A stretch of 64,000 bases of DNA from Psilocybe cubensis (Eukaryota), in the NCBI GenBank assembly GCA_017499595.2, contig CM039001.1, positions 1,054,001 to 1,118,000 on the forward strand, read 5' to 3'. The translations under genes were made by a program, and so were the position numbers. How positions within the stretch are numbered: the stretch's first letter is position 1; each line of letters starts with the position of its first letter. Shown here piece by piece: positions 15,801-23,605 of this stretch. The notes under the pieces are model-generated. The model saw only the letters and a program-made list of their open reading frames with translations. It was not told the origin of the DNA and made no database searches.

Positions 15801-17462
15801 CGCGTTGCCGAGATACACATAAGCTTACATTCCAACATGCCGACGACACCAAAAAATATATCATCTTCCAAGATGTGTTCGTACATCGTGTGGTCGTTCA
15901 ACATCACTGATACAAATCGTTGGTATTAAAAATGGTATGCAGAAACGTGTTTTCTTACGTATTGATTGCATGAGACTACACAGGGCATGCAAATTCTCCA
16001 GGTTTTCCAAATCTTCGGCAGTATGCATGACTTTGATGAGAGCTTTGATGTAATTCTGAGCAACATGAATTGGAAATTAGAAAGCACATCAAATTTCACT
16101 TTGTAATAATGCGTTGCTTACCTCTCGCTGAATATAGTCGCATATCCTCTCTTTCACGGTCTGCGTCCTTGCCAATGCTTTGATTGCTCTCTCAATTTCG
16201 CTGATGATCCCTAGCTGCGGCGGCGGAAGGTGTCCAGATCGAATGATGCTGGACGTTGTAACTGAAGTCTCTCCTAGTAGAGGCGAAGATACGACAGTCG
16301 GGTCGTCTGATAACCAATTTTAGATTTCATATCCGAAGGACGATGAGAAGGCGACTGACCAGACATATTCATATGGCGTTGTACTTCCTGAATGAACGCC
16401 CAGGTCTCTGCACAACCTTCTGGATCTTGAAAACTGAGGGCGTAATCAACACCATCAGGTTCGGTCCATACGATAAGTGTATCTACGAATATGTTTATTA
16501 GAAATTTAGAAATACAAGTCAATGATTTATTGTGAATGGTCGTGTGCGCTGTTCCCAGAAAGCGCGTGTCGGCCGCTCCCAAAAAACGTCACCGATAGCT
16601 CACCTTGCTGACGCTGATACACATCATTCGACCGAATAGCTGTCGATAGAATGACTTGGTTGGGGTTTCGTTCAGACCGAGCCACAAGAAGAGCGTCGCT
16701 CGTTTCTTCTGAGATCTGGCCATAGCAGAAAGCAGTTCCTTGGTCTATCCATCGTGATCCGGTCAACTGGTAGACCTGAGAAGAGATGTCAGCGAGTGTA
16801 AGGTGTGACAAATATGGGTCGCTGGTGCCATGAGTTGGAAGTTTGCGTCTGGTGGCACAATGAAATTACTCGAGACAAGCTTCTTCCAATATGGACATAG
16901 GAGCGATAAGGGGGATTGGGGGAAATTGGAGAACAGAAAATAGGACAGTGCGCACCTTTACGCGTTTCAATTCATGATCAGATTCCGGCAGCCAATCCCC
17001 ACCTTCGTCAGTCATGATCAAGCCTCCGTCGCCTAGACCAGGATCATGGGTTGGTGTATGTTCAACCAAGTCAATCTGACCATTGACATGCCTCAACAGA
17101 ACCTCCCCGTCTTCTTTAATTATGGATGTATCAGCCTCTACGTTCTCCGTCTCCGAGTGTCCGCCTTTGTCTTGAGCGACGCCAATTACTTCCGTCGTCT
17201 GAACGAATTCGCCTTCCGTTTGCGGACTCTCGGTCGCAGGATGAAGCGATGCTGAATGAGAAAGATCGTCCGGGGCGATATTTGCCACGGCTGTAGCAGC
17301 TGGATCCTGATCTACGGATGAGTGCGAGTCCTGAAGAGACGAGTGTGAATCGAGAATGGTGGTGGAACCAGCACCAATGGGATGCGCCGCGCCCGCGAGA
17401 GAGTTGGTGGATGTGTGAAGGAGAGACTGTGGATCCGTGGACGCGCTGGCGAGGCCGTTCAT
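12894..17462 (-). CDS. PSY2: Protein phosphatase 4 regulatory subunit 3 (Psy2/SMEK, EVH1-like plus DUF625 domains), multi-exon
   Basis: LKRVKVYQLTGSRWIDQGTAFC, YQRQQ|DTLIVWTEPDGVDYALSFQDPEGC, IHHTYRLQFLKDVVLARALDD, RRDNLLSCSCQEYFE. Confidence 0.92.
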
Positions 17463-17670
17463 GGGCAGCGACTCGAAATAACGGCCGGGGGAGAAGTCGA
17501 GACGAGAAAAATGAACGGAGAGTGACAGAGAACACTCGGGTCGTGGGTAACTTTCCGCCAAATAAACCACCGGTCCGCTTGTCTCGAAATATCCCCAGGA
17601 ACCATTAATTATGTAATCACCAAAAAATCCCTTTTTTCAGCACAGCCGCTGTTCAACCCAGACATCGACC

Positions 17671-18442
17671 ATGGACAACAGGTCCACGTCCTACATCACC
17701 CTCGCCGCCGTCTCCCTTGCCGCCGGTCTTGCAGCCTATGCTGTATACTTCGACTACAAGCGGAGGAACGATGTCGAGTTCCGCAAAAAGCTCAGTATGT
17801 TGCTGTCACTGCCACTGCCCCCGCCTGCCACAATTGACGCCTTGCTGCAGAAAAGGAGAAAAAACGCGTCGAGAAAGCCGTAGCCCAGAGCAAACAGAGC
17901 GAGCTCGCAGAGTCCTCGGGTGAAATTGACGAGCAGGCCCTCCGCGAAGTCATCAAAACAATTCGGAGTGAACCAGGTCCCCAGACCTCGGACGAAAAAG
18001 AGGGCTACTTCATGTCCCAAGTCAGCATCGGCGAACAACTCTCTCTTCAAGGTATCCTATGCGCGTTTTTTCTTTAGGAGAATGAGGACTCATGTTTTAT
18101 TAGGCCCCAGGATGTACTTGCCAGCTGCAGCTGCCTTCTTTCGGGCGCTCCGAGTGTACCCTTCCCCCGTCGAGCTTATTGGTATCTATGAAAAGACGAT
18201 TGTTGATCCTGTTTTCAAGGTGTGCTGCACACTTTTCCCGCTTGCGTATTATTCACCGACAACATTATTCACAGCTGGTCATGCAATTAACTCAGTTAGA
18301 CGTAAGTGATTTTAATTCACCAATACATAACAACATGTTAGATCTCGACGACAACGCTACTCCACCTAGGGGCCCTCCGTCTGAGACCTCCTCTCAGGAA
18401 TGGGACAAATTGACGGATCCCGACTCTCATCCATCAGCCTAA
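17671..18442 (+). CDS. TOM20: Mitochondrial import receptor TOM20 (MAS20), short isoform ~202 aa; exons 17671-17794, 17851-18051, 18104-18219, 18275-18442
   Basis: N-terminal TM followed by YAVYFDYKRRNDVEFRKKL; TPR-like YFMSQVSIGEQL...AAAAFFRALRVYPSPVELIGIYEKT; stop TAA 18440-18442. Confidence 0.85.
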
Positions 18443-18673
18443 GTTGTTGGGAAGGAATGAGCACTGCCCCAGCAGTTTTCAAAATTGGGATTACGTCATT
18501 CATGATTGCTGGCACGTCTCGCGATAGAAGGAGAGAAGAGTCGAGATGAAAGTAGTGCGTTCGTAGAAGATATTAACAATCATACCCCCTCCTATCCCTT
18601 TTCACATCCGTTTTGCAACACATTTTCTAATACATCTGTTGCATATTCTCGTCCTATTCTTGATGGTTCCCAG

Positions 18674-20128
18674 GTTAAACATCGAATCGAAGGTGCGCCT
18701 TACATCGATGTCTGAGTGTGCTTCAACGACTGAGTGGTCCCGTGCTTTAAACTCCAGCCTACTACGATAATTTCCCACCTAAACGAACCAATGTATCTGT
18801 TGTCAGCCGCGAAATAACGCCGGGACAGGGTAATAGGCAGGTCCTTGTCGTGGATAAGGACTTTGTTGCTGGAGAAGTTATCTACAAGGTTTTAATTAGC
18901 AAAATTCTCGAAGCGACAATGCATCCTGAAAGCCTTTATTTCCAGGAATTCCCCGTAGTCACCGCTCTAGATTCAGACCTTCAAGAAAAGGGGACTCACT
19001 GCGCCCATTGTCTTCGCCCCATCCAACCAGGAATGTCACTACAAGACCCTTCGGACACCAGCAGTCCATTCCGCCTGACATACTGCTCCAAAGCCTGCAT
19101 GATTGCATCCAAAAACCAGTACCACTCGCTTCTGTTCTCCTTAGAGAATCCCTTGCCCGCTGAAATCCCCACAATAGCTCAGACCCAGGAAGAGGTAAAC
19201 AAACGCGCCGCGGCTCAATCTGATTTCGCCGACTTCATCAAGGGCGAACACCGTCTTGCCCCGCTTCTGGTTGCGCGCTTCATCGCGCGTCAGGTCGCTG
19301 GAGAAACCCAAAAATTAGTCTCGGTTACAGCATCCGGCATGTCTGCGACCTCATCTACTGACGACTTCACCGACGCCGACCACCCCATTGAGAAGTATGT
19401 CCTTGCTGACCATCTCGAGCGCCTCAGGTACCTTGAAATTCCAACGAATTCAACGGAAACCAAGCTCCTGTCTGATGTACTCTCAACTGCCCTTCCTGGC
19501 CTGGAAGCATTCATCACCGAGGAAAAGTATGCAACTTCGTGCGGTAAAATGGCTTACAATGCCTTTGGTGTATGCTTTGGCGGAGGACGCGATGACCGAG
19601 TACGTCATCATTCCTCTCTCATTATGGTCAATATATCTTTTGCTCATCATTGGTTAACTCTAGCCCGAGCCCGCTGCTCGCCCGGAAGACGTCGAGAAAA
19701 CGCGGACACCCTATGGAACTCACCGCCAAATCGGCAGTGCATTGTATACCGTTTCTTCATACCTCACACACTCCTGCAAACCCTCCGCGCGCCCCTCCTT
19801 TAGCTCTGGCACCGCGGAAATCTCGATCATTGCTAACCGTGACCTCAAGAAGGGTGACGTGCTCACCGTCGCGTTCGTTGATGTTACACAGCACCCCGAC
19901 GAATCTGTTATCGAGTGTAGACGTCGTAGACGCTTCGAGCTTGCCCGTGGCTGGAGGTTTTCCTGTGCATGCGAGAGGTGCATCGAAGAGGCTCAAGCAC
20001 TTACGGCTGAGGAGAAAGGGAGTGCGTCTGAGGAGCAGATGAAAGACGAGTCGAAGGTTGAGGCTTCCATAAGAAACTTTGCGAAGTCTGAACAAGTGAC
20101 TCAGTCCGAAGAGACCATTGACGCTTAA
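18674..20128 (+). CDS. MYND-like/SET domain (SMYD/Set5-like) exons 18674-18692, 18758-18888, 18946-19599, 19664-20128; apparently the C-terminal part of a TOM20-SET long isoform
   Basis: LVVDKDFVAGEVIYKEFP, CAHC...YCSKAC, YLTHSCKPSA, ANRDLKKGDVLTVAF, post-SET FSCACERC; no convincing own start, and an in-frame splice from the TOM20 donor at 18302. Confidence 0.8.
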
Positions 20129-20700
20129 TCTGTTTTTTATTGGTCGATGTTGTGTTATTGATGTTGCCGCGACCCTCACTACATGATATGGTTGTTCAGA
20201 GGTGGATTATTCACAAGAGATCGATGTTCATCTGCTGAATAGTACCACCACTCCTCATAATGCAAAATAATAATAACGTAGTATTTGTTAATTTGTGGTG
20301 CTATTGAAAGCAATCAAATCATGCAAATTAAAAATTTACAAGTACAGTAAAAAGAAGGTGGTAGAAAGCTAGGTATCCCAAAGTAGTAAAAGAAAGCATA
20401 TGCCACGAGAGCAATACAAATGAAGAGTCAACAAGTATAATACAGCGTGCAAAAGAACGAATGGGCACAATGAAAAATGAATAAAGAGATAAAGAAATAA
20501 CCAAAGTTCAAAACAATGTTAGAAAACAAGACAGCTATTATAAACAATAAGGTGTACAATGTACCACTATGTGTTGATGAAGAAAGGATGTTCAGCCAAT
20601 CTGCATCATTTGTTATATGATAAATAAGACGAAAGAATGTATGCTTAATTTATTTCAACAAAGTGGGATCCTCTCAACCTGGGATTGGGTTGAATGTGGG

Positions 20701-23605
20701 TCATGCCAAACTTCTCCACATCCCTTCTTCAGGTATCGCGTTTCGAGCTTGAATTATTTTTAGAGCATGTTTGCGAGCCTTCTGTCCAACTTCCGAAGAA
20801 ACGGGACCCGCCTCATCGCCATCGTCATCATCTTCGTCTTCATCATCCTCGGGAATCGTGAAGTCCAGGGCGGGACCTGGATCCTGGCCACGATTTCGAT
20901 CCCGCTCTGCATATGCTAAATCACGAATAGCAGCAGCTGAAAGTTGCTTGCTATTAACACTGAAAGATGGAACACTCGCGAGAGCTTTGTTTGGCATGGC
21001 AGAAGGGACAATATAAGATGCAAGGGAAAGGGGCTCCTTTTGCTTAGGTCGCATGACCTCGATGCGCAAAGAGCCGGGTAAACCACGCTCAGCGTATGTT
21101 CGATATTCATCTGTACAGAAATTATTAACTAGACACGATAGTATATGAATACAAAGAACAAACAAACCTTCTTTGTCGTCTTCAACGTCGAGCATGAGCA
21201 CCTTTGCCTTTGTTTCGAATTTCACCCCCTTGGATTTTGTTCCGGTGGGAGATATGGAACCAGCCTTCGATGGCTCAGTTGAGTCATCAGCTCCCTTGTT
21301 CGATGTATCGGTAGACTTGTCTGGCACTGAAATTTTCTTTGAATTCTGTCGCCGTGTAAATATTTGCCATGCCTTACTATTTGGCGCCCATGCCCCACGA
21401 TGACTCGGGGTCTCAGCTGCAACCAATTTCAGAAGAGCCGCGTCGGTTTCACTCAGAGGAACGGCGGGCGATGTCGTGACGCGCGAGGTACCTTCATTCC
21501 GTGCGAGACTTGTGGAGGGCCGAGAGAAAGGTAACATACCCTGTGACGACGAATCCACACCTGGCTGACTTCTGACTGGACGGATATTCGACGGAGCGGG
21601 TAGAGAAGCCGGACGCAATGATGCAAATGCCTCAAAGGCAGGGTTGGGACGTTTGCTGCGAATATTGATTGGGCGAGGGATAGATTGTTCAAGGAGTGGA
21701 AGAGTATTATGTCGATCATTAGTCGATTTCTCCATCGACTCTTCTCCGTCAATGTCTTCCAATGGGAAGAGCATTTCTAAAACCAAACAAAAATAAAATG
21801 TCAACAGATGTTCCTTTAGTTTTGAATGAGACAAAGAAATAACCTCTAGATTCAGATTCTCCTGCAGTAGTCTCCCCTTCCGTACTCTCTCCATCACTCT
21901 GGGCAGTCATCACAGCGGGTGCGACATCAAAAGTGACCTTCCTCTTGCCCTTGTCGCGGCCGCGTGTTGGAAGTCCATCACCATCATGTTTAACAGGTTT
22001 CTCAGCAAGAGTCTCCTTGGTTTGATGCGTTGTGGAAATTGATTCACTTCCTGCATCCTCAACTTGATCAGCATGATCTGCTGAAGCAGCTAGTCCCCGT
22101 TGCCTCCTAGACAGTTCTTCCTCTTTGAGGCGCTTATGTCGAGCCATTTCCTCTTCGAGATTAAGGAAATACCGATAGCTTTGTTGTGTATTAAGATTTT
22201 CATCCAGATTTCTCTTAAACTCCTGAGTACTGATGCCTGCCGTACGAGGACGAGTTAGTGTTGACGATCCAGATCTTGGCGTTGATAAGGTGCTCGAGCT
22301 AGCTTCATTGGCAACGCCATCGGATTCCGCCTCAATCTGATCCCGCCGAGTATTCCTCGGGTGGTGGAAACCAGAATTGGCCAAGGATGCTGAGAGAGCA
22401 GACACCCGCGGAAGAGATTGGGAAATAGTGGAGAGGTTCGAAGATACGCGTTGGGGGACAAAACTTGTGATCTTGACAGATGAAGATACTTCTGAGCCTG
22501 TACGGGAGCTGCCTGGAGCAAACAAATCGAGGTCTTTGCCCTGTCCAGCGCTGGATGGCGAGCGGACGGAATTGCCACCATTACTCCGTTCTTCTTGTAT
22601 TGCATTAAGATGCTCCCTATAGTCTCTCCATAGGCCATCTACCTGACTTTTCAGTTCCTTTTCTTTCATCTCGATGCCGGCAGTCTCGGCCTTTACGAAA
22701 TCTCGTATACGCTGTTCTGCACTCGCACGTAATGCCTGCGATTCTTTCGTAGCTAGCCCTGCCAGTAGGACGAAGATAGGATGTGAAGATGTGTATGGGG
22801 GTGGCAAGAACAACGGTGGCAAATTGGAGAGGTACGAAGGGGGTTCATCGGATGATGGTTTTGTAAGATAGATGGTCTCTTCCTCGTCCACTACTGGCGA
22901 AGGGTTACGAGATGGGAGCAAAAGAGATAGATAGGGAGCATAAGATGTCGACTTTTCCGCTTGAGATATGTTCTCCCCAATCTATTTTAAATATTAGAAC
23001 GAGTCAGATAAAATCGACGCCTTTCGTGAAATTGCGAGGGCAAAAAATGCAAAGTCGACACCATCGTCCAAAATTTAGGTCAAAGAGCATATAAAGTCCT
23101 CTGACGTGCTATTGAACCAAGAATCACAGTCAGAACAATACTCACTAGGGTATCCTTATGCACCTCAATCCATCCAGTAGCGCTCTTCATGATCTCATGC
23201 TCTACCCAATCTTCCGTGGGCAGCAAAGTCGAATCGTTCCCTTCAACATCAGGTGAAATGATCTGGTAAACGCGATAAACATGCAGATTGCACAAAAGGC
23301 ACGCCAAAGTAGTAAAACGAGAGCATTTGGTAGTGCCTGATACAGGCATTGGTTTGGACGGAATGCGAACGGTAACCTGAGGATGAGTCTAGAAAAGATA
23401 AACAATCTTTAGGACAGCCACTTGTCAATATCTTGACCAAAGAACATACCACAGAAATTCCATCGTCCTGAACGAAGACTGGGGTGTATTGTGGATCGCT
23501 TGGACATTCAGGAGCAGCGGAAGAGGGCTGGGAGGTATTTATGCGAACATTTAAACATTTACAAGCGTAAAAAGTGGCCAGTCCCTCGGAAATGGCGCTG
23601 GCCAT
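20701..23605 (-). CDS. Hypothetical protein with N-terminal Cys motifs (CKC, CLLC), coiled-coil and disordered regions; multi-exon
   Basis: Chain of minus-strand ORFs joined by short GT-AG introns, from MASAISEGLATFYACKCLNVRI to ...IPEEGMWRSLA*. Confidence 0.7.

Follow-up and report, generated by a model that had tools for sequence, protein, structure and literature searches.

The TOM20 locus of Psilocybe cubensis is probably a single transcription unit that is expressed from the TOM20 promoter and gives rise to two proteins, which share the same N-terminal anchor and a complete Tom20 receptor domain. The locus lies in a 64,000-nt stretch of contig CM039001.1, hereafter the window, and all positions given below are those of this stretch. 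According to the proposed mechanism, if the splice site GTAAGT at 18302 is skipped, the ribosome would read it as Val-Ser within a stretch of 46 codons and produce the canonical basidiomycete Tom20 of 202 aa, which ends in a conserved acidic tail. When the GTAAGT is used, 372 nt would be removed, a micro-exon would be joined in frame and the tail would be swapped for a split SET domain of ~420 residues, similar to SMYD proteins and to AKMT. The long form would thus be a 578-aa Tom20-SET fusion anchored in the outer membrane and facing the cytosol, and the last Tom20 helix is predicted to continue unbroken across the splice junction and on into the SET domain. Both forms are presumably translated. 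The long form would be located at the TOM complex and would methylate or hold lysines of precursors or of neighbouring proteins. Intron retention could be the only way in which the choice between the two forms is made, or intronic polyadenylation could contribute as well.

Organization of the locus

The locus is composed of the following features, all on the forward strand:

17671..17794 (+), exon 1, common to both forms; ATG at 17671, N-terminal hydrophobic signal-anchor followed by basic residues, beginning of the MAS20 domain
17851..18051 (+), exon 2, common to both forms; middle of the MAS20 domain
18104..18219 (+), exon 3, common to both forms; end of MAS20 (profile positions 95-128 of 132)
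18275..18301 (+), exon 4, common to both forms, 27 nt; final common codons before the branch point between the forms, the last codon (GAC) ending at 18301
18302..18307 (+), dual-use GTAAGT; 5' splice site in the long form, Val-Ser codons (GTA AGT) in the short form
18302..18442 (+), read-through tail of the short TOM20; 46 codons, then TAA at 18440-18442
18443..18673 (+), rest of the 372-nt alternative intron, 3' untranslated in the short form; acceptor ...CCCAG at 18673
18674..18692 (+), micro-exon of 19 nt, coding for VKHRIE plus one base; bridges TOM20 and the SET body
18758..18888 (+), exon 6; N-terminal strands of the split SET domain (aligned by profile to the AKMT N-SET), join 18888>18946 present in contigs
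18946..19599 (+), exon 7; four-cysteine zinc knuckle and long helical insert (I-SET)
19664..20128 (+), exon 8; C-terminal SET core, post-SET C-x-C-x2-C, acidic tail and stop codon, join 19599>19664 present in contigs
20129..20281 (+), 3' untranslated region of the long form; RNA contigs end at 20168 (X1) and 20281 (X2) and define no true 3' end

If the GTAAGT at 18302 is read through, the product has exactly 202 aa. Removal of 18302-18673 (372 nt, GT..AG) brings the micro-exon into frame and gives a product of exactly 578 aa, free of internal stops. The other six introns measure 56, 52, 55, 65, 57 and 64 nt and every one of them is of the GT..AG type. Indeed, the coordinates, the GTAAGT, the 372-nt intron, the 19-nt exon and the two product lengths that had been proposed in a preliminary description of this stretch are all confirmed to the base. 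A CTAAT at 18627 is a candidate branch point of the 372-nt intron. Taken as single exons, exons 1, 2 and 3 match MAS20 in Pfam with 39.6, 30.9 and 34.2 bits, respectively.

The micro-exon frame is open upstream only as far as 18506 and contains no ATG. Furthermore, every ATG from 18302 to 18960 is either out of frame or runs into a stop, and no independent ATG opens the SET frame in the window, which agrees with the earlier remark that the SET part has no good start of its own. Two possible starts were considered, namely an ATG at 18546 spliced to 18674 and an ATG at 18708 with a 43-nt intron, and neither of these joins is present among the RNA contigs. A scan of 16500-21500 against Rfam gave no family match. 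A second TOM20 gene may exist elsewhere in the genome.

RNA evidence for two forms

The RNA evidence consists of contigs of two runs, X1 and X2, that belong to a single study and are classed as RNA only by a guess in the run index; two DNA runs (X3 and X4) served for comparison. Contigs of X1 and X2 skip introns 1, 2, 3, 6 and 7 at GT..AG boundaries, whereas contigs of X3 and X4 keep them; X1 and X2 were therefore taken as transcript-derived. The joins among the common exons are found in both X1 and X2, namely 17794>17851, those on either side of exon 2 and of exon 3, and 18219>18275, the last being written with the cut two places leftward.

The two RNA forms, spliced and retained, are both present in these contigs. 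The fusion join 18301>18674>18692>18758 is found in contigs of both runs, so that the junction whose detection had been proposed as a check (18301/18674) is present as an exact join in X1 and in X2. A contig that stops at 18303 is extended, in X1 as in X2, by 28 letters that correspond to 18676-18692 followed by 18758-18768, i.e. to the fusion join, and the loose ends of contigs at 18303, 18692 and 18756 spell 18301>18674 and 18692>18758. As these exact joins occur in two transcript-type runs and the same join is found in many fungal protein models, the fusion join is beyond chance. The retained form is represented in both X1 and X2 by a 430-nt contig, which covers 18274-18692 unspliced, including the whole of 18443-18673, and is then joined to 18758. 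None of the six remaining introns is covered in X1 or X2, and the retention is therefore specific to the 372-nt intron and is not due to general pre-mRNA or to carry-over of DNA.

Since the retained contig passes through the micro-exon and is spliced from 18692 to 18758, at least some of the read-through RNA is plain intron retention, and the alternative terminal exon or polyadenylation switch put forward in the preliminary description is not borne out by this contig. In the retained-intron RNA, three further introns lie downstream of a stop codon, and when this RNA runs into the SET exons it might be a decay target rather than a working message for the short form. This same point favours a regulated splice and polyadenylation switch, in which the short message would be polyadenylated shortly downstream of 18442, the tail and its 3' UTR forming a true alternative terminal exon, because a short message with a stop and three introns behind it would otherwise presumably be exposed to decay. 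Such a switch is a serious alternative, judged somewhat less than evenly probable. It is also in line with short Tom20 contigs of ~1 kb in environmental transcript-like data and with the depths of the X2 contigs (128 for the TOM20-only contig, 74 for the SET-exon contig and 80.5 for the retained stretch), although contig depth cannot rank the parts of a gene. Against it, besides the onward splicing of the retained contig, no poly(A) end or loose A-run was found in 18443-18673, where contigs would seldom show one, and no common poly(A) hexamer or T-run was found in 18302-18760, a criterion that is weak or uninformative in fungi. Contigs yield no isoform ratios, starts, ends or poly(A) sites. 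Estimation of isoform ratios from contig depth was discarded as unreliable, depth being one figure per contig and the X1 TOM20 contig being 4.8 kb long with other sequence included.

The short form is a canonical Tom20

Tom20 (MAS20) is a presequence receptor of the TOM complex. To our knowledge, it is among the best-studied import receptors, and nearly all of the work on it comes from ascomycetes and animals. The 202-aa product is letter-for-letter identical to a public entry (P0098), annotated as tom20 of Psilocybe cubensis, and has a full MAS20 match (PF02064; 128.8 bits vs a cut-off of 27, profile positions 3-132 of 132). As in canonical fungal Tom20, a signal-anchor, basic residues and a complete MAS20 domain are present: the translation shows a single hydrophobic N-terminal anchor followed by basic residues, and the model of a homologue (P0001) shows one long N-terminal helix. 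The P. cubensis gene differs from canonical fungal Tom20 in that its second form swaps the C-terminal tail for a SET domain of ~420 residues; no comparable SET-fused form of the yeast or Neurospora receptor is described in the literature searched. Another public model (P0099, 207 aa) retains intron 3 and splices out a short piece downstream of 18301; the RNA contigs show neither this retention nor this join.

The tail carries the conserved C-terminal motif of basidiomycete Tom20, PPSE-T/A-SSQEWD, which is present in 59 of 100 short-length Tom20 matches, including three Ustilaginomycotina (Ustilago, Microstroma and Exobasidium). Val-Ser stands at the equivalent position in 39 of these 59 motif-bearing matches. 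The tail alone has no match in Pfam. Complete short Tom20 frames with the tail are also encoded on contigs of 0.7-1.2 kb (P0104, P0105, P0106, P0111, P0129 and P0135), which is no more than a slight hint, given that assemblies are fragmented.

These data bear on the possibility that the fusion is the only real product and that the read-through RNA is unproductive retention, noise or a substrate of down-regulating decay. That the unspliced contig goes on into the SET exons is what would be expected of retention and not of a dedicated short message; in addition, the whole MAS20 domain is kept in the long form, and the models of early-diverging fungi are fused, no such tail having been found in them by motif search. 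However, conservation of the tail as far as the Ustilaginomycotina would be unexpected of intron sequence and counts against this explanation, as does the coverage by RNA contigs, in both runs, of one intron out of seven, the 372-nt one; the short frames on small contigs add their slight weight on the same side. A fusion-only gene is thus considered unlikely, and a locus with two products is the preferred reading.

The fused architecture across fungi

The long form has many counterparts, and its SET part is strongly similar to many MAS20+SET proteins. Among 97 relatives of SET exon 7, MAS20 lies ahead of SET in the same model in 81; the direct junction is present in 38 of the 97, and 19 keep the tail motif inside the fused model. 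The remaining 16 relatives are SET-only models, of which eight have a Tom20 model with a neighbouring locus-tag number and two more lie on a contig as long as that of a Tom20 model. Fused frames are also encoded on contigs that are too short for introns: those of P0081, P0316 and P0060, with 554, 552 and 444 aa, lie on contigs of 1883, 1659 and 1628 nt, respectively.

A profile built from 12 SET-only models retrieved 159 representatives at E<=1e-30, and MAS20 is present in 42 of the 64 representatives with a length of at least 320 aa. Thirty representatives were looked up, 28 of which could be named. Twenty-three of the 28 are non-Dikarya fungi (chytrids, Blastocladiomycota, Gonapodya, Mucoromycota including Mucor, Mortierellomycota, Glomeromycotina, Zoopagomycota and Basidiobolus), and all 23 have both domains; none of the 28 named relatives is an ascomycete. 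The linker around the micro-exon is conserved down to these early-diverging fungi (chytrids, Mucoromycota). The fused models elsewhere are mostly predictions and could share an annotation habit; evidence that does not depend on gene prediction comes from the few intron-free contigs alone. The MAS20+SET models in agarics that the preliminary description mentioned are real, and the architecture is spread far more widely than agarics, from chytrids to Mucor.

Conservation thus accompanies both C-terminal parts, and both RNA forms are present in the contigs, so that the earlier claim of one locus that yields both a short TOM20 and a fusion of TOM20 with SET is upheld; the conservation of the tail and of the SET exons, which had been proposed as a check, is seen at the protein level. 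To judge from these sequence comparisons, both alternative C-terminal ends look to be under selection.

Very improbable, in the light of the same data, is a pair of neighbouring genes, TOM20 and SET, joined by occasional read-through or chimeric splicing between exon 4 and the micro-exon with no functional product: the public annotation of the closest named organism does contain only short tom20 models (P0098, 202 aa, and P0099, 207 aa), the 16 relatives mentioned above are annotated as SET-only, and a 438-aa frame on a 1586-nt contig (P0092) has Met first at the micro-exon position, but the SET frame is opened by no ATG in the window, the SET-only models disagree in their N-termini, ten of the 16 adjoin a Tom20 model, the linker is conserved even in chytrids and Mucoromycota, intron-free contigs of other organisms carry the fused frame, and the junction falls within one confidently predicted helix.

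A survey of 2022 (J Fungi, PMC9692433) described SET genes, designated Group 25, that have MAS20 upstream of SET; according to the parts of the survey that concern this group, none were identified in Ascomycota and their functions were unstudied. The long form of P. cubensis fits this description as it is given there. Those parts present the architecture as a plain gene model, with no mention of alternative splicing, of a short Tom20 from the same locus or of a link to import. The MAS20+SET architecture was thus already known, and two-product splicing was not found described, as far as the consulted parts of the survey go. The literature searched yielded nothing on the function of MAS20+SET proteins or on two-product splicing of TOM20.

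The SET part: domain, fold and catalytic residues

The last exon of the locus matches Pfam SET with 23.9 bits (cut-off 22.4), and in P0001 the SET match spans residues 192-496 (28 bits, same cut-off of 22.4). Exon 6 and exon 7 alone have no match in Pfam. The closest sequence matches of the SET part among solved structures, according to profile alignment, are AKMT (6fnd, E 1.1e-10) and SMYD3 (E 2.8e-10).

A structure was predicted for P0001, a homologue with 78% identity. The model has a pLDDT of 87.8 and a pTM of 0.81, and in it a single helix (P0001 residues 143-167) crosses the splice junction, the block having a pLDDT of 91-96. With Foldseek, the best 38 among the matches listed for the SET part of P0001 are SMYD3, SMYD2 or SMYD1 (E 7.7e-11 to 9.5e-9); these SMYD matches have a probability of 1.00 and a TM by target of 0.43-0.51, the best being SMYD3 and SMYD2 with E about 1e-10 over 370-425 columns. 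The receptor part matches the Tom20 subunit in the TOM holo complex of Chaetomium thermophilum (9i7s_K, E 8.6e-7, 36% identity, TM 0.66 by target), and the model also matches human TOM20 in 9eij and 9eih. The homologue's model thus shows a predicted fold of the SET part that is SMYD/AKMT-like.

In common with SMYD1, SMYD2, SMYD3 and Toxoplasma AKMT (6fnd), the SET part has a split SET domain, a zinc site in the split, an H-S-C core and a post-SET C-x-C-x2-C. The zinc-knuckle cysteines are Cys225, Cys228, Cys253 and Cys257 of the 578-aa form; 94-95 of the 96 agaricomycete rows and all 20 early-fungal rows keep them. The post-SET cysteines (Cys525, Cys527 and Cys530) are present in 91 of the 96 agaricomycete rows, and a Trp aligns to Tyr257 of SMYD3. 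The domain had been called MYND-like in the preliminary description. The name holds insofar as a four-cysteine remnant is left (C-x2-C ... C-x3-C), but not as a recognizable zf-MYND, which has no Pfam match in the SET part at E<=0.1. The SET part differs from SMYD proteins in the absence of a Pfam MYND domain, with four cysteines only, and apparently in the absence of the long C-terminal helical domain after the post-SET part, where only ~50 poorly predicted residues follow (pLDDT 43-77 in the P0001 model). It further differs from both SMYD and AKMT in being membrane-tethered via Tom20.

The N-H-S-C motif reads T-H-S-C at residues 459-462, i.e. H-S-C is conserved and the Asn is replaced by Thr. 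Across the family, this position is mostly Thr, Ser or Ala; AKMT resembles the family in lacking the Asn, 6fnd also having Ala there, and in the G-W-x-F that precedes the post-SET cysteines. AKMT is an active enzyme. In alignments, the position of Tyr239 of SMYD3 is occupied by Phe495 in P. cubensis; at this position, the 96 agaricomycete rows have Tyr (58), Phe (33), Trp (three) or a gap (two), and the 20 early fungi have Tyr (13), Trp (four) or Phe (three). In the published study of SMYD3, Tyr239 is strictly conserved and essential, and the Y239F variant is inactive in vitro. By analogy with this variant, and with the Thr in place of Asn also counted, the SET domain of P. cubensis may lack methylation activity altogether. 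The earlier suggestion that the SET part could modify proteins at the import gate is not supported as it was worded, catalysis being uncertain in an organism that has Phe where SMYD3 has Tyr239.

Comparison with other systems and wider significance

Fungal enzymes can gain an alternative C-terminus by splicing or by stop codon read-through, as in the peroxisomal isoforms of glycolytic enzymes in Ustilago. As in those cases, one gene of P. cubensis would encode two proteins that differ only at the C-terminus owing to a splice site inside the coding sequence. The alternative end is here a whole enzyme-type domain and not a targeting signal, and the fungal span is far wider. A Ctm1-like role, in the lysine methylation of cytochrome c, was considered as an idea.

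More tentatively, the dual-coding splice site of TOM20 could, in most fungi outside the Ascomycota, place an SMYD/AKMT-like methyltransferase rigidly on the receptor, where it would methylate precursors, TOM subunits or docked translation machinery at import, yeast and Neurospora having lost it; this generalization is rather doubtful. If it were true, this loss would be the reason why a protein modification coupled to import had gone unnoticed.

A mushroom TOM20 gene also encodes a receptor-enzyme fusion, and fused gene models run from chytrids to agarics, which implies long-standing selection for a SET-fold domain at the entry gate of mitochondria. The question of lysine methylation, or lysine-dependent capture, of proteins entering mitochondria is thereby made testable. 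Finally, public models of the TOM20-SET locus vary, some being split, some fused with the tail and some fused without it, which has consequences for the numbers of TOM20 and SET genes that are counted in the genomes of fungi.

Gene model and splice donor

The TOM20/SET gene was reconstructed from the window sequence. The coordinates, lengths and frames of the preliminary description all proved correct, and so did its statement that the SET exons lack a good start of their own. The features are as follows:

17671-17794, 17851-18051, 18104-18219 and 18275-18301, plus strand: four common TOM20 exons, 156 residues
18302-18307, plus strand: GTAAGT, immediately 3' of the last common codon; Val-Ser if read as codons
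18302-18442, plus strand: tail of 46 open codons, then TAA at 18440-18442; product of 202 aa
18302-18673, plus strand: alternative intron of 372 nt, acceptor at 18673
18674-18692, plus strand: micro-exon of 19 nt, joined in frame when the 372 nt are removed
18758-18888, 18946-19599 and 19664-20128, plus strand: SET exons, reached from the micro-exon via a 65-nt intron; 578 aa without a stop

In the 156 common residues, a hydrophobic N-terminal anchor precedes an entire MAS20/Tom20 domain. Exons 1-3 each match Pfam MAS20 on their own, and over profile positions 3-132 of 132 the short protein, once assembled, reaches 128.8 bits. The remaining six introns of the gene measure 52-65 nt. Frame inspection of 18302-18960 revealed no usable ATG for the SET part, every ATG there being out of frame or ending in a stop; upstream of the micro-exon, its frame stays open no further than 18506 and holds no ATG.

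The 202-aa product is letter-identical to a public Psilocybe cubensis model annotated as mitochondrial import receptor subunit tom20 (P0098). A second public model (P0099, 207 aa) retains intron 3 and lacks a short segment following 18301; it was rejected, neither feature being backed by contigs.

Transcript evidence

None of the runs listed as containing locus sequence is registered as RNA. About 70% of the sampled locus words are present in X1 and X2, two runs of one study, whose contigs lack introns 1, 2, 3, 6 and 7 exactly at GT..AG, whereas X3 and X4, two runs of another study, cover the locus colinearly and are DNA-like; X1 and X2 are therefore transcript-derived. In both X1 and X2, (i) a contig reaching 18303 is extended by 28 letters corresponding to 18676-18692 and 18758-18768 (11 letters of exon 6), and the micro-exon letters precede the exon 6 contig, which together constitute the predicted fusion join 18301>18674>18692>18758, and (ii) a 430-nt contig runs gapless over 18274-18692 and continues into exon 6, representing the read-through form, in which the 372 nt stay in place and the following intron is spliced out. 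None of the other six introns has contig cover in X1 or X2 (n=5 and 6 contig records); retention is therefore specific to the 372-nt interval and not the result of a general admixture of unspliced RNA or of DNA.

Of the splice/polyadenylation switch proposed earlier, the two splice outcomes are thus found in RNA. Some short messages may end inside the intron rather than be plain retained-intron forms, but the retained contig carries on, spliced, into the SET exons, so that at least some read-through molecules are of the retained-intron type. The contigs are uninformative on transcript starts, ends and isoform ratios. The X2 contig depths (TOM20 exons 128, retained stretch 80.5, SET exons 74) are compatible with an isoform mixture without being evidence for one, and nothing is concluded from depth.

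Position 19891, the third base of a Gln codon in the frame, is G in the window and A in all four runs; the change is silent and, as the DNA runs also have A, is a strain difference and not editing.

Conservation of the two forms

The coding conservation expected for the tail was observed: a motif S-S/T-Q-E/D-W-D/E near the C-terminus occurs in 59 of 100 Tom20-length relatives (many of the remainder being fragments of <180 aa), in every agaricomycete order sampled and also in three Ustilaginomycotina, namely Ustilago bromivora, Microstroma and Exobasidium. Such deep conservation inside an intron argues that the read-through product is under selection. Furthermore, Val-Ser directly follows the last common Asp/Glu in 39 of the 59 motif-bearing Tom20s, the trace left in the protein by a GTA/GTG AGT/AGC donor doubling as codons.

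The MAS20+SET models that the preliminary description mentions for agarics are real. With the largest SET exon as query, 97 relatives were found among longer proteins, all named ones being Agaricomycetes, and 81 of them carry MAS20 ahead of SET according to a Tom20 HMM built from 32 short forms. The direct junction Asp-Val-Lys-x-Arg-Ile/Val-Glu-x-Tyr-Tyr is present in 38/97; 19/97 models keep the tail motif followed by the micro-exon, which places the tail sequence of those genomes, too, after TOM20 and ahead of SET. For 8 of the 16 SET-only models a Tom20 model has an adjacent locus-tag number, and for 2 more an identical contig size; their N-termini are unrelated to one another, as would be expected from split annotation. 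Fused frames are also found on contigs too short for introns (554 aa/1883 nt, 552 aa/1659 nt and 444 aa/1628 nt), a support for the fusion that is independent of gene prediction.

Seven models (P0025, P0027, P0031, P0038, P0043, P0052, P0065) splice to the micro-exon just after the tail motif (...Q-E-W-D-K), where a Val codon could act as GT donor; a third form holding both tail and SET is possible in those species. It is impossible in the window, where 18400-18412 has Leu (TTG) at that Val position and no GT. Four other models, P0066 (1565 aa), P0064 (700 aa), P0034 (593 aa) and P0343 (1892 aa), merge TOM20-SET with a kinase, PF04430, PF02230 or an Elongator subunit, and are probably over-merged predictions across neighbouring genes.

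A profile of 12 SET-only models, run against 1.84 billion representatives, matched 159 proteins at E<=1e-30; among the matches listed, 42 of the 64 representatives >=320 aa carry MAS20. A taxon look-up of 30 representatives named 28, which are 5 further Agaricomycetes and 23 non-Dikarya fungi, with no ascomycete among them. Both domains lie in one model in 23/23 of the non-Dikarya fungi:

Non-Dikarya fungi with MAS20 and SET in one model
Chytridiomycota: Phlyctochytrium, Polychytrium, Thoreauomyces, Rhizophlyctis, Fimicolochytrium, Entophlyctis
Blastocladiomycota: Allomyces, Blastocladiella, Sorochytrium, Paraphysoderma
Mucoromycota: Mucor, Halteromyces
Zoopagomycota: Syncephalis, Piptocephalis, Dimargaris, Tieghemiomyces, Ramicandelaber, Dipsacomyces, Spiromyces
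Others: Gonapodya; Podila; Ambispora; Basidiobolus

The linker around the micro-exon is also recognisable in the alignment of these early-diverging fungi. From these comparisons, the TOM20-SET fusion appears to be conserved and very old.

SET domain

By sequence, the nearest solved structures are Toxoplasma AKMT (E 1.1e-10, profile) and human SMYD3, SMYD1 and SMYD2. A confident structure model (pLDDT 87.8, pTM 0.81), made with a 50-sequence alignment for the 78%-identical homologue P0001, has SMYD3 and SMYD2 as best fold matches (E about 1e-10, 370-425 columns); at its N-terminal end it matches Tom20 from the TOM holo complex of Chaetomium. In this model, the last Tom20 helix extends over both splice junctions and on into the SET domain as a single helix (residues 143-167, block pLDDT 91-96), which suggests a stiff connection and not a floppy tether.

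In the family alignment, the four zinc cysteines in the SET split, the H-S-C core, the post-SET C-x-C-x2-C and an aromatic residue at the Tyr257 position of SMYD3 are kept. Unlike in SMYD proteins, Thr, Ser or Ala takes the place of Asn in the N-H-S-C motif (AKMT itself has Ala), and the window protein has Phe at the Tyr239 position of SMYD3. In the SMYD3 structure paper, Tyr239 is described as an essential residue with strict conservation, and Y239F as lacking activity in vitro. Among 96 agaricomycete rows, 58 have Tyr at this position, 33 Phe, 3 Trp and 2 a gap; among 20 early-fungal rows, 13 have Tyr, 4 Trp and 3 Phe. The SET and post-SET parts of the preliminary description were recovered; its MYND-like part is reduced to the four cysteines in the split, with no Pfam MYND match in the window exons or the homologous proteins. 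The structure matches, with the kept and altered residues, point to a SMYD/AKMT-like fold working like a lysine-binding SET module, which may carry out methyl transfer in P. cubensis.

Relation to published work and proposed mechanism

The MAS20+SET architecture has been published and is present in databases: in a phylogenomic study of SET genes in fungi (PMC9692433), genes with MAS20 ahead of SET make up Group 25, for which the study reports no genes identified in Ascomycota and unstudied functions. A literature search returned nothing on the two-product arrangement, a dual-use splice site or a functional link to import. The locus is a variation on Tom20, SMYD-like SET proteins and splicing-made alternative C-termini, and is relevant to the mitochondrial import field, whose model organisms belong to lineages without an identified Tom20-SET fusion.

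The two RNAs and their reading frames, with the conservation of both and the fold, are shown here and allow a mechanism to be proposed. One promoter would serve the whole locus, the signal-anchor and receptor domain being common to both forms, and the choice would be made at the splice donor that doubles as two codons. Left unused, the donor would yield the usual Tom20 receptor, ending in the conserved acidic tail; used, it would exchange the tail for a SET domain placed on the cytosolic side of the outer membrane, beside the presequence-binding domain. Both forms are presumably translated; the long form would be located at the TOM complex, where its SET domain could act on precursors, TOM subunits or nearby machinery.

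C-termini and neighbouring genes

A C-terminal Val/Ile/Leu-Glu, typically ...D-V-E or ...N-V-E, is found in 25/97 SET relatives (P0002, P0005, P0007-P0009, P0013-P0018 and others). These ends resemble the acidic C-terminal motifs bound by TPR-clamp proteins and the C-terminus of animal Tom20. The long form of the window, unlike them, ends in ...T-I-D-A (20105-20128).

A 256-aa open frame (16866-17636, minus strand) lies head to head with TOM20. In X2, no contig covers 17504-17665 and the TOM20 contig starts at 17666, 5 nt upstream of the ATG; in X1, a single contig runs straight across this interval. The two genes may have a common, very short divergent promoter region. Downstream lies a convergent minus-strand gene (open frame 20701-21906), whose RNA contigs begin at 20357; the SET contigs reach as far as 20168 in X1 and 20281 in X2, which places the two 3' ends about 80-190 nt apart.
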